A DNA stretch of 64,000 nucleotides from Candidatus Woesearchaeota archaeon (GTDB taxonomy: Archaea > Nanobdellota > Nanobdellia > Woesearchaeales > GW2011-AR4): assembly GCA_016187465.1 (NCBI GenBank), contig JACPJQ010000004.1, forward strand, positions 104,861-168,860. The letters are read 5' to 3'. Shown here one piece after another: positions 52,087-55,735 of the stretch (positions are counted from its first letter, which is position 1; each line of letters starts with the position of its first letter). The translations under genes and the position numbers were made by a program. The notes beneath the pieces were generated by a model. The model was given only the letters and a program-made list of their open reading frames with translations, was not told where the DNA came from and did not search any database.

Positions 52087-52778
52087 AGTTTCGAATTTTA
52101 TTTTTTTAATATATAAACTTTTGTGTGAAAAATAAAAAGGAAATAGAAAATTAAAATTAATCCGTAAAATTAGGAAATTATTGCTGCTCCATTTGCTGCT
52201 CTTTTTTCTTCTTTGCCATAAACATCACCTCCTGCAAGTTCAATTAATCGCCGGCTTCTCCAGCCACTTTTTCAGATTTATATGCCTTGCGAAAAAGCTA
52301 GTAACCTGTATTTTTTGGTAATATTGAAAGAAAATTATTTGTGAGTGAAAATGCGGATTTCGTTTACAATATGGAAAATAATCACCGCAATCTTTAAATA
52401 ACCTGCAATTATCCTTGTAATCCGCTGCGCATGCTCGCAATAATTGGCATTAGCCAAATGCAGAGAGTGTGCGTGGAATTATTGAGTTAATTCTGCGCAA
52501 AATATGTTAAATTAGATTTCATAAGAATAAAAATTTACAATAAAAATTCAATATTCAAATATGTCGCTTCCCGGCATCGGCCAAGGTGGAATTGGAGCCC
52601 CGCTTAGGAAAATTTGCCTTGCTATCTGGATAAATATGCGAGGCGGATCGACTGGTTTAGGGGTAACATGCCCAAAAACGGAAATTGTCGTTGCCGCCGA
52701 GCACTAATGTTTGCCGAAGGCGGATTGAAAAATAAATAAAAAATTTAACTAAAAACTTAAACAAGAATGAGGTGCTAA

Positions 52779-54313
52779 ATGGAACAAATCAGTGGAAGAC
52801 CAAAAGACATCAAGCAAATTAGTGATGTAGTTTGGGAGATACCCCCATCCTACAAGAAAGGGATGTTAGTTCCTGCAAGAATATATGCGACTAAAAAGCT
52901 TCTTGCAGAGATGGATGATGGTGTCTTTAATCAGGTAACGAATGTTGCGTGCCTGCCTGGAATCCAGAAATACAGTTTCTGTATGCCCGATGGTCATTTT
53001 GCTCTGTAGTTAATTCTACTGCAAGACAAGTGGGGCTATGGATTTCCAATTGGAGGTGTAGCTGCTTTTGATGCAGAAAATGGGGTTATAAGCCCAGGCG
53101 GTATCGGATTTGACATTTTCGTTGAAGAATAAACTTCGCGAAGTCACGTAATTGCGGTATGCGCCTGGTTACAACTAATCTTACCTATAAAGAAGTCCAG
53201 CCAAAACTAAAAGAATTAGTTGACACAATGTTCAAGACTGTCCCGTCCGGAGTCGGGGCAAAGGGCTTTGTCCAGGCAAGCAAGCAGCAATTCAAGGAAA
53301 TAATTTCTGATGGCTCAAAATGGTGCGTTGAAAACGGATATGGGTGGCAGGAAGATGTTGAAAGGACGGAAGGCTATGGAAGAATAGACTGGGCAGAGCC
53401 TGAAAAAGTGAGCACAAAAGCAGTCGACAGGGGCATGAACCAATTGGGAACTCTTGGCTCGGGCAACCATTATCTTGAGATCCAGATTGTAAGGGCGGAA
53501 AATATTTTTGATCAGGAAATAGCAAAAAGGTTTGGCATTGCAGAGCCGGAGCAGATTGTTGTTATGGTACACTGCGGCAGCAGAGGCTTTGGGCACCAGA
53601 TAGGAACTGACTATTTGAGAATTTTCGAGGGCGCAATGAAGAAATATGGCATTGAAGTTTATGACAGAGAATTGGCTTGCGCGCCATTCCAAAGCAGTGA
53701 GGGCCAGGATTATTACAAGGCAATGGCATGCGCAGCCAACATGGCATTTGCAAACCGCCAGGTGATTTTGCATAGGATAAGGGAAGGATTTTCAAAAGTT
53801 TTCCATACAGATGCCGAAAAACTGGAGATGCACATGGTTTATGACGTTGCCCACAACATAGCAAAGCTTGAGGAGCACAATGTCGACGGTCACAGGAAGA
53901 AAGTGATAGTACATAGAAAAGGCAGCACAAGAGCCTTTCCGCCGCACCACCCTGAGCTTGCAAAGCTTTACAAGGAGACAGGACAGCCCGTCATCATAGG
54001 CGGCTCAATGGAAACAGGCTCATTTTTGCTAGTTGGAACCCAAAAGGCAATGGACGAGACATTTGGCTCAACAGCTCACGGCTCCGGCAGAACAATGTCA
54101 AGGGCTGCTGCAAAACATCAAGTGCGAGGCGAGCAATTGCAAAGAGATATGGAAAAGAAGGGGATTTATGTGAAGGCAACCTCGATGCCGGGATTAGCCG
54201 AAGAAGCGGGTTTTGCGTACAAGAATATAAATGACGTCATTGACGCTGTTTCGCAGGCCGGTATATCAAAACCAGTAGTGAAATTAATCCCCTGCGGCAA
54301 CGTCAAGGGTTAG
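52779..54313 (+). CDS. rtcB: RNA-splicing ligase RtcB, interrupted by two short BHB-type insertions (exons 52779..52997, 53031..53116, 53149..54313)
   Basis: MPDGH / [14 protein letters not shown]...[10 protein letters not shown] / [12 protein letters not shown] and downstream His ligand motifs; joined exons give 489 uninterrupted codons. Confidence 0.85.
52998..53030 (+). other. putative 33-nt BHB intron 1 in rtcB (contains in-frame TAG)
   Basis: bulges at|t and ag|t flank central helix ggtc/gaca; inner helix ttgc/gcaa; hairpin gtag-ttaatt-ctac. Confidence 0.55.
53117..53148 (+). other. putative 32-nt BHB intron 2 in rtcB (contains TAA; removal restores frame and the DINCG metal-ligand motif)
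   Basis: outer helix 53107-53110/53150-53153, bulge at|t, central tgac/gtca (4 WC), bulge cg|t, inner helix 5 bp, hairpin gaag-aataaa-cttc. Confidence 0.65.
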
Positions 54314-55288: not shown

Positions 55289-55735
55289 ATGAACATAAAA
55301 AACGACAAGAAGAAATACAAATTTCTCGAAGACGTTGCAATAGCGGATATAGCGTTTGAGGCTTACGGAAAAACCTTGACTGAAATGTTTGAGAACTCCG
55401 CCTTGGCAATTTTTGAGCTGAGTGCTGATTTGAAAACAGTGGATGCAAGGGAAAAGTTAGAGTTTGCATTGGAGAATGAAAAAATAGATAATCTGCTTTA
55501 TGATTTTTTATCAGAAATTTTATTTCTAAAGGACTCAAAATACATGGTTTTTAAGAAATCCGAGGTTTCAATAATTGAAAATGAAAAATATCAGCTGAAG
55601 GCAGTCCTTGAAGGCGACACAATAAATCCGCAAAAACAAAAATTGGAGAATGACATAAAGGCAGTAACAATGCACATGTTCGAGGTTAAGAAAGAAAAGA
55701 CTCGATGGAAAGCGACAGTTGTGGTGGATATTTAG
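55289..55735 (+). CDS. archease (RtcB activator)
   Basis: MNIKNDKKKYKFLEDVAIADIAFEAYGKT...VKAVTMHMFEV...WKATVVVDI; start trimmed to internal Met of ORF 55202..55735. Confidence 0.8.
   Translation: MNIKNDKKKYKFLEDVAIADIAFEAYGKTLTEMFENSALAIFELSADLKTVDAREKLEFALENEKIDNLLYDFLSEILFLKDSKYMVFKKSEVSIIENEKYQLKAVLEGDTINPQKQKLENDIKAVTMHMFEVKKEKTRWKATVVVDI

Follow-up and report, generated by a model that had tools for sequence, protein, structure and literature searches.

The 64,000-nucleotide stretch of DNA analysed here (positions 104,861 to 168,860 of contig JACPJQ010000004.1, assembly GCA_016187465.1, from Candidatus Woesearchaeota archaeon, a small groundwater archaeon of the DPANN superphylum), hereafter called the window, carries a gene for the RNA ligase RtcB (52779..54313, forward strand) that is split by two insertions of 33 and 32 nucleotides (nt), as seen in the list of open reading frames (ORFs) and their translations. 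Judged from sequence, these insertions are very probably archaeal bulge-helix-bulge (BHB) introns located within the coding sequence of rtcB. This was the central claim of an earlier reading of the same DNA (the original prediction), and it is supported by covariation in the RNA structures, by the fixation of exon wobble bases, by the existence of intronless relatives, and by the selection acting on the gene.

The first rtcB ORF (52779..53009) ends at a TAG at 53007-53009, the coding capacity of the unspliced RNA being only 76 residues. A middle piece (WGYGFPIGG...GFDI) follows in the frame of the N-terminus, and the body of the protein after the second insertion lies in the +2 frame. When 52998..53030 and 53117..53148 are deleted, 1470 nt remain, corresponding to 489 codons and a stop: removal of intron 1 restores the motif HWGYG, and removal of intron 2 restores GFDINCG. 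The spliced product gives one uninterrupted match over the whole Pfam RtcB profile (1-426/426, 581 bits), and aligns without gaps over both junctions with the solved RtcB of Pyrococcus horikoshii (1UC2/7LFQ). The position of each junction is defined, except for a 1-nt T/T ambiguity, and the three-piece gene originally described was confirmed in its coordinates, its frames, its TAG at 53007 and the single 489-codon RtcB obtained by the two deletions.

RNAfold was run on the motifs alone (with a 61-nt context for intron 2) and within a 221-nt context, in which both BHB motifs are present in the minimum free energy (MFE) and centroid structures (z = -3.2); intron 2 also passes a strict BHB scanner. 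As modelled, intron 2 is a canonical BHB (hBHBh'), with an outer helix of about 17 base pairs (53093-53110/53150-53168), a central helix of four Watson-Crick pairs (53111-14/53143-46), bulges of 3 nt each (53115-17, AU/U, and 53147-49, CG/U, the slash in the letters marking the cut), an inner helix of 5 base pairs (53118-22/53138-42), and a hairpin (53124-27/53134-37, GAAG/CUUC). Intron 1 is modelled as a relaxed BHB, which is an accepted form: its outer helix (52985-88/53033-36, GCCC/GGGC, with U52991.G53032) is broken by two unpaired bases, its central helix combines three Watson-Crick pairs (52993-95/53025-27) with G52992.A53028, and the motif is completed by its bulges (52996-98, AU/U, and 53029-31, AG/U), an inner helix (52999-53002/53021-24) and a hairpin (53006-09/53016-19). 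The original prediction had called both sites canonical, which holds for intron 2 but not for intron 1, although the elements listed for the latter (three Watson-Crick pairs with a G.A, AU/U bulge, inner helix, hairpin and GCCC/GGGC) were all recovered by RNAfold. For intron 2, the bulges, the central and inner helices and the hairpin had been given exactly, but the outer helix extends beyond the 53107-53110/53150-53153 first proposed.

In tRNA genes, the canonical intron is located at position 37/38 of the 7-nt anticodon loop, which means that the BHB cut falls after the second base of each bulge. In rtcB, the cuts predicted in this way (52997/52998, 53030/53031, 53116/53117 and 53148/53149) are the very junctions that restore HWGYG and DINCG. 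Chance alone often produces a loose BHB pattern (some 1.7e-4 times per site-length pair, with some 1100-1400 occurrences per strand of the window), so that the motif alone is no evidence, and motif quality was therefore measured. In the window, motifs of at least the quality of intron 2 arise by chance at 5.9e-6 per (site, length) pair, and relaxed motifs of the intron 1 type at 2.7e-4; the chance probability of finding both on junctions that were independently inferred from the protein is roughly 1e-8. Both the fold and this calculation bear out the cuts, two bases to one within each bulge, that had been placed on the protein-inferred junctions.

Two collection scans yielded 160 related DPANN loci (numbered L001 onwards), and five more were reached through an endonuclease gene described below, making 165; the closest of them come from metagenome-assembled genomes (MAGs) of Woesearchaeota and Nanoarchaeota from groundwater and sediments. 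In about 96 of the 160 loci, rtcB is uninterrupted and its flanks are colinear. For example, L001 shares synteny with the window along 4.6 kb, where 81% of nucleotides are identical, and has neither of the two introns, its flanks being colinear; it is the kind of intronless relative that the original prediction had suggested looking for. Short insertions of classes A to D (Table 1) are found in about 37 of the 160 loci, and the five endonuclease-derived loci also contain insertions. Across loci, these measure 12-33 nt and fall into two hot spots, HxGYG and GGIGFDINCG, which together offer five positions; all of them introduce an in-frame stop or a frameshift, and all fold as BHB or bulge-helix-loop (BHL) motifs cut at the junction. 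Classes have been seen in the combinations A+D, A+C and B+C, or as D alone, and never as A with B. In a tree of the intron-free C-terminal 380 residues, genes with class A, B, C, D or no insertion are completely intermingled among near-identical proteins. It was also observed that contigs or matches begin in or just past the intron hot spots (query residues 76-119) at L031:1, L114:3, L141:3001 and L116:1019, as would be expected if a population polymorphism for intron presence or absence breaks assemblies.

Among homologous introns, it is the structure and not the sequence that is conserved. Structure cells of the class A alignment pair at a rate of 99%, as compared with 40-56% when the partners are slid as a control; in four pairs, of which three belong to the inner helix, both partners have changed, and none of 500 shuffles attains the observed values; the intron sequences of L049 and L164 are unrelated and fold the same. 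In class B, 99.4% of cells are paired, with exchange between G-C and A-U pairs, and L113 adds a swap from C-G to U-A. Intron 2 of the window differs from its counterparts in L118, L123 and L124 by compensatory differences in the inner stem and hairpin. The exon side of the motif carries a similar signature: the wobble bases C52988, U52994 and C53036 are fixed across all 14 distinct class A genes. The Pro codon CCC is used by 14/14 of these genes and by 2/31 of the close intronless genes, and the same comparison gives 14/14 against 7/31 for Gly GGT, and 14/14 against 13/31 for Gly GGC, whereas unpaired wobble sites nearby vary within the same class A genes.

Could the window rtcB nevertheless be a decaying pseudogene, disabled by its insertions, with another ligase or a second rtcB copy doing the work? 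As written, the gene cannot be translated past codon 76, and automatic annotation leaves the intron-bearing rtcB of relatives split or uncalled, both of which would fit such a reading. However, beyond the two insertions there are no further stops or frameshifts in the 489 codons, nor in about 40 other intron-bearing alleles, which give single full-length tblastn alignments with no disruptions besides the insertions. The ratio of nonsynonymous to synonymous differences per site (pN/pS) is 0.09-0.21 between intron-bearing genes, at pS of 0.43-0.75, and is the same in comparison with the intronless L001 (0.08), and exon 3 gives 0.08-0.13 against relatives. Moreover, the insertion positions are exactly reused, their removal restores invariant motifs, compensatory changes preserve the RNA structure, and the wobble bases of the exons are adapted to it. 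A pN/pS of about 0.1 at near-saturated pS indicates that intron-bearing rtcB is under strong purifying selection, and hence that the insertions are introns rather than marks of decay, which leaves the pseudogene as a very improbable explanation; the progressive decay that the original prediction had named as a contrary sign was not seen.

The insertions might also be real and yet be handled otherwise than by BHB splicing, whether through an intein, a self-splicing ribozyme, or a ribosome that bypasses the gap or shifts frame. In gene 60 of phage T4, translation skips a short untranslated gap, which counts for bypassing, and relatives of the window carry an intein in the same motif. Yet no matching take-off and landing codons surround either gap, and with 32-33 nt the insertions are far below the size of group I or II introns, whose core comprises hundreds of nucleotides; an Rfam search of the insertions gave no match at the gathering or E-value threshold. 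An intein is excluded by the stop or frameshift that both insertions of the window carry, and the BHB geometry matches the junctions exactly, so that any of these other routes is very improbable. The inteins of the relatives are LAGLIDADG inteins of about 500 amino acids (aa), located at DIN/C of RtcB in L033 and L113. From this point, the class D site is 3 nt upstream, and the class C site is 17 nt away. Besides its intein, L113 has an intron of class B and what is left of an endonuclease gene. These two insertions had at first been read as large introns, a candidate that was rejected because they are true inteins, the only ones seen. RtcB inteins have been listed for Archaea and Bacteria (PMC4760082); they occupy the same catalytic DINCG motif as intron 2 of the window, but are removed at the protein level and, within their roughly 500 aa, contain a LAGLIDADG domain of their own; the window has no such intein.

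By analogy with established BHB biology, the BHB introns of rtcB would be excised by EndA and the exons joined by RtcB with archease. The rtcB pre-mRNA would fold into two separate BHB motifs, each formed by exon and intron bases, and EndA would cut each 3-nt bulge after its second base, freeing introns of 33 and 32 nt and leaving 2',3'-cyclic-phosphate and 5'-OH ends; RtcB and archease would then ligate the three exons, producing an mRNA for the 489-aa ligase. The archease gene that had been proposed about 1 kb downstream was confirmed by Pfam (Table 1), and the gene order rtcB-DUF167-ZIP-archease is kept in relatives. Several points weigh against the two insertions being BHB introns: EndA (tRNA_int_endo) was not found among the 30 ORFs scanned in the 64-kb window, the motifs, when folded singly, reach only modest z-scores (-1.9 to -2.5), and the G.A mismatch in the central helix of intron 1, together with its interrupted outer helix, would require an EndA of relaxed specificity. 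EndA types have been mapped across DPANN species in a study whose tRNA survey included a Woesearchaeota genome (PMC5829648). One tRNA-Val is present in the window, and it is intronless. Should the cell possess intron-containing tRNAs, RtcB would be essential already, and an intron in rtcB would add little risk; rtcB would then be a safe host for introns, because a cell without RtcB would already be non-viable.

Why do these introns occur in some rtcB genes and not in others? A free-standing gene of the LAGLIDADG_3 endonuclease family lies directly upstream of a BHB-intron-bearing rtcB (with its intron at the HxGYG site) in 14 of the 14 members examined. A complete LAGLIDADG_3 ORF precedes rtcB in 8/23 distinct intron-bearing alleles as against 0/74 intronless ones (Fisher test, 3e-6, ignoring relatedness, which inflates such statistics). 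A database search returned 390 homologues of the endonuclease in MAGs of Nanoarchaeota, Woesearchaeota and Aenigmarchaeota, and all six that were looked up (56-71% identity, unrelated neighbourhoods) are located immediately upstream of a broken rtcB. Remnants of the gene are found in two class B loci, L025 and L113, and in one locus without an intron, L012. Upstream of rtcB in the window, tblastn detected neither an endonuclease gene nor a remnant of one, and the free-standing endonuclease has no significant sequence similarity either to solved structures or to the endonuclease of the RtcB intein.

A case in point is the near-isogenic pair of L066 (class B) and L109 (no intron), whose flanks share 97% identity along 2.1 and 4.4 kb. 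The two differ only in a block (L066:2084-3260 versus L109:2285-2513) that comprises the gene for the endonuclease, exon 1, which has diverged, and the intron of class B. A 965-nt block that is absent from L109 encodes the LAGLIDADG_3 protein (Pfam, 1.2e-21), the ORF of which overlaps the start of rtcB; exon 1 is only 62-71% identical between the two, and identity rises to 97-100% from the first base after the intron. In L017, codons 1-75 of rtcB occur a second time, in a displaced copy of 80% identity (L017:278-502). This copy breaks off at HWG, lies 2.5 kb upstream of the full-length gene, and is followed by two unknown ORFs and then by the endonuclease gene. Exon 1 is 91-94% identical between class A genes whose 3' parts share only 81-86%, the pairs formed by the window and L124 and by L084 and L101 are mosaics, and the 5' 450 nt of the window rtcB are closest to those of L124, a carrier of the endonuclease gene. 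The simplest reading that these comparisons suggest is that endonuclease gene, exon 1 and intron spread as a homing-like module. The rtcB introns are probably a family of mobile mini-introns, which DNA recombination would carry from genome to genome, in part at least along with the LAGLIDADG gene. A second LAGLIDADG_3 ORF was also noticed between rtcB and archease in L170 (5226-6587), and in L092 and L111/L112 rtcB is separated from the DUF167/ZIP genes by an additional 2-2.7 kb; mobile DNA seems to settle at the rtcB locus quite generally.

A more specific proposal, put forward tentatively as slightly less likely than not, is that there exists a mobile module new for Archaea, of which the rtcB mini-introns would form the RNA-level half. 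The endonuclease would target the intronless HxGYG site, a candidate target being intronless rtcB DNA (as in L001 or L109) around CATTGGGGNTAYGG, and class A, B and B2 introns, which all lie within a 9-nt span, would break this target and so immunise the gene. Intron and endonuclease gene would travel together by co-conversion, amounting to collaborative homing of a protein-spliced intron. Introns of classes C and D, including intron 2 of the window, may for their part block the homing of RtcB inteins and act as a shield against them.

The original prediction had favoured a different role, namely a self-referential regulatory loop in which the production of active RtcB depends on RtcB already present. 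As an adaptive autoregulation, this would couple RtcB output to RtcB and EndA activity, in a feedback that tunes the amount of ligase. The dependence itself is a sound inference from the anatomy of the gene: as the unspliced RNA encodes only 76 residues, the synthesis of new RtcB would need pre-existing RtcB, and the linkage of the archease cofactor in the same locus also fits. No result supports the regulatory part of the idea. Most close relatives manage without any intron, introns appear and vanish between near-identical genes and use several alternative positions, and a positive feedback yields no homeostasis; selfish mobility is a better fit to the recombination breakpoints that coincide with intron sites and to the linked gene for a homing endonuclease. 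Autoregulation and selfish mobility are not mutually exclusive. Taken together, the patchy distribution, the breakpoints at intron sites and the endonuclease linkage point to mobile-element biology and not to regulation, so that adaptive autoregulation is unlikely, and the rtcB introns are probably not regulatory devices.

How do these introns compare with known systems? A BHB intron in the crenarchaeal cbf5 pre-mRNA was reportedly described by Watanabe in 2002. The coding-region BHB intron of this pseudouridine synthase gene in Crenarchaeota (PMC2738675, Yokobori 2009), which a 2020 paper still described as the only coding-region case (PMC7714728), resembles those of rtcB in being a short BHB inside a coding sequence, presumably processed by EndA and RtcB, gained and lost among relatives, and hosted by a gene of RNA processing. 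In contrast, the rtcB introns occur in DPANN Woesearchaeota, their host is the splicing ligase itself, two of them interrupt one ORF, with five alternative positions across relatives, and they are much smaller, down to 12 nt, and linked in relatives to a free-standing endonuclease gene. In Haloferax volcanii, the HVO_1309 mRNA has an experimentally verified BHB intron in its 5' untranslated region (PMC7714728), and is likewise a case in which the archaeal splicing endonuclease acts on an mRNA instead of a tRNA or rRNA; unlike in rtcB, which is known from sequence alone, that intron lies in the leader and interrupts no reading frame. Archaeal tRNA genes of Thermoproteales and DPANN contain multiple and non-canonical BHB introns, associated with EndA of broad specificity (PMC5829648, PMC4090602). 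They share with rtcB the hBHBh', relaxed HBh' and BHL forms of mini-introns, the cut after two of the three bulge bases, the occurrence of several introns per gene, and lineages in which EndA bears extra specificity loops. In rtcB, however, the host is an mRNA and the exon halves of the motif also encode protein, hence the fixed synonymous sites.

Outside archaeal splicing, a close parallel to intron mobility is the cyanophage psbA intron, for which collaborative homing has been described, the intron breaking the target site of the enzyme (PMC6083498). There too, the endonuclease gene is located outside the intron and beside the intron-bearing gene, the intron occupies a highly conserved site, and homing-type co-conversion is paralleled in rtcB relatives by the replacement of exon 1 up to the intron site. 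The rtcB introns differ in being protein-dependent BHB introns and not self-splicing group I introns, in having a cellular archaeon as host, and in that the putative homing enzyme is of the LAGLIDADG type, the window itself lacking such a gene. The unconventional splicing of HAC1/XBP1 mRNA in eukaryotes, by IRE1 cleavage and RtcB/Trl1 ligation (PMC3400036), is similar in that a coding frame is restored by cleavage at paired stem-loops followed by an RtcB-type ligation, but it relies on another endonuclease and RNA motif, acts as a stress-regulated switch, and does not have the mRNA of the ligase as substrate. In the literature searched, cbf5 of Crenarchaeota is the one gene with a documented BHB intron in its coding region. 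Full-text searches brought up no BHB intron in rtcB, nor any in protein-coding genes of DPANN archaea, in keeping with the remark of the original prediction that RtcB was not known as a BHB host. The splicing grammar is already known; new are the gene that serves as host, its lineage, the number of introns and their dynamics in populations. The association of the rtcB introns with an endonuclease gene may be new as well.

Some other features of the window may be mentioned. A 690-nt gene-free spacer (52087-52778) separates trmO from rtcB, parts of which are conserved in L001, L002, L007 and L123; this spacer is not an endonuclease-gene remnant, and a GC-rich island within it (52555..52735, about 170 nt) was considered as a hidden tRNA or non-coding RNA and rejected, as it has no Rfam match and no significant fold. 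A strict scan for other BHB-split genes, on both strands and with ORF joining, gave 85 candidates, which were rejected as chance: the best of them join unrelated neighbours, such as LivH/LivM-type permeases, a DUF763 protein and an unknown ORF, ferritin and Fe-S biosynthesis, or GNAT and PQ-loop proteins (Pfam). On the reverse strand, region 2740-2910 is strongly structured (RNAfold z = -4.5), with a long perfect stem, and overlaps only a dubious ORF (2647-2937); it matches no Rfam family (best RsmY, E = 0.08), and may be an undescribed non-coding RNA.

Table 1. Features of the split rtcB gene in the window, and intron classes, inteins and endonuclease genes of related loci (positions refer to the window unless a locus is given)
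Feature	Position or site	Strand	Length	Remarks
rtcB exon 1	52779..52997	+		Codons 1-73, ending ...MPDGH; ORF list and alignment to RtcB structures
Intron 1 (class A)	52998..53030	+	33 nt	In-frame TAG at 53007; between His73 and Trp74 codons
rtcB exon 2	53031..53116	+	86 nt	Up to first two bases of Ile102 codon
Intron 2 (class D)	53117..53148	+	32 nt	Frame-shifting; inside Ile102 codon of DINCG
rtcB exon 3	53149..54313	+		Ile102 third base, then NCGMRL... through stop codon
BHB motif 1	52985..53036	+		RNAfold MFE and centroid; pair counts on class A alignment A1
BHB motif 2	53093..53168	+		RNAfold of 61-nt and 221-nt contexts; passes strict scanner
Archease gene (RtcB cofactor)	55289..55735	+		Pfam PF01951, 3e-39; about 1 kb downstream of rtcB
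Class A	CAY/TGG, His/Trp		29-33 nt	16 loci and window
Class B	Inside Tyr codon of HWGYG		30-33 nt	15 loci
Class B2 (fifth position)	Tyr/Gly		18 or 29 nt	More distant genes L169, L170
Class C	GGI/GFD		12 nt	3 loci
Class D	Inside Ile codon of DINCG		32 nt	3 loci (L118, L123, L124) and window
Intein	L033:1560-3060			Same contig as L130
Intein	L113:about 1015-2480
LAGLIDADG_3 gene	L017:2174-3049
LAGLIDADG_3 gene	L066:2178-2987
LAGLIDADG_3 gene	L124:168-995
LAGLIDADG_3 gene	L161:4001-4867
LAGLIDADG_3 gene	L164:4001-4840
LAGLIDADG_3 gene	L166:4001-4852
LAGLIDADG_3 gene	L169:3001-3840
LAGLIDADG_3 gene	L170:3001-3843

With rtcB, coding-region BHB introns would gain a second host gene, which belongs to another superphylum and in which one ORF may hold several introns, some as short as 12 nt. 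Thanks to the abundant polymorphism for presence and absence, it would become possible to follow in natural populations how archaeal introns are gained, lost and transferred. It also has a practical side, as gene callers drop or split intron-bearing rtcB, and metabolic reconstructions of DPANN archaea may wrongly report the gene as missing. If RtcB is itself made from a BHB-spliced mRNA, then ligase activity would have to be inherited through the cytoplasm. Finally, the linkage to an endonuclease gene and the closeness to an intein site provide a testable explanation for the existence of these introns, namely protection from homing elements, or cooperation with them. If the mobile module proves true, it would directly support the old idea that archaeal BHB introns persist by breaking the targets of mobile elements.

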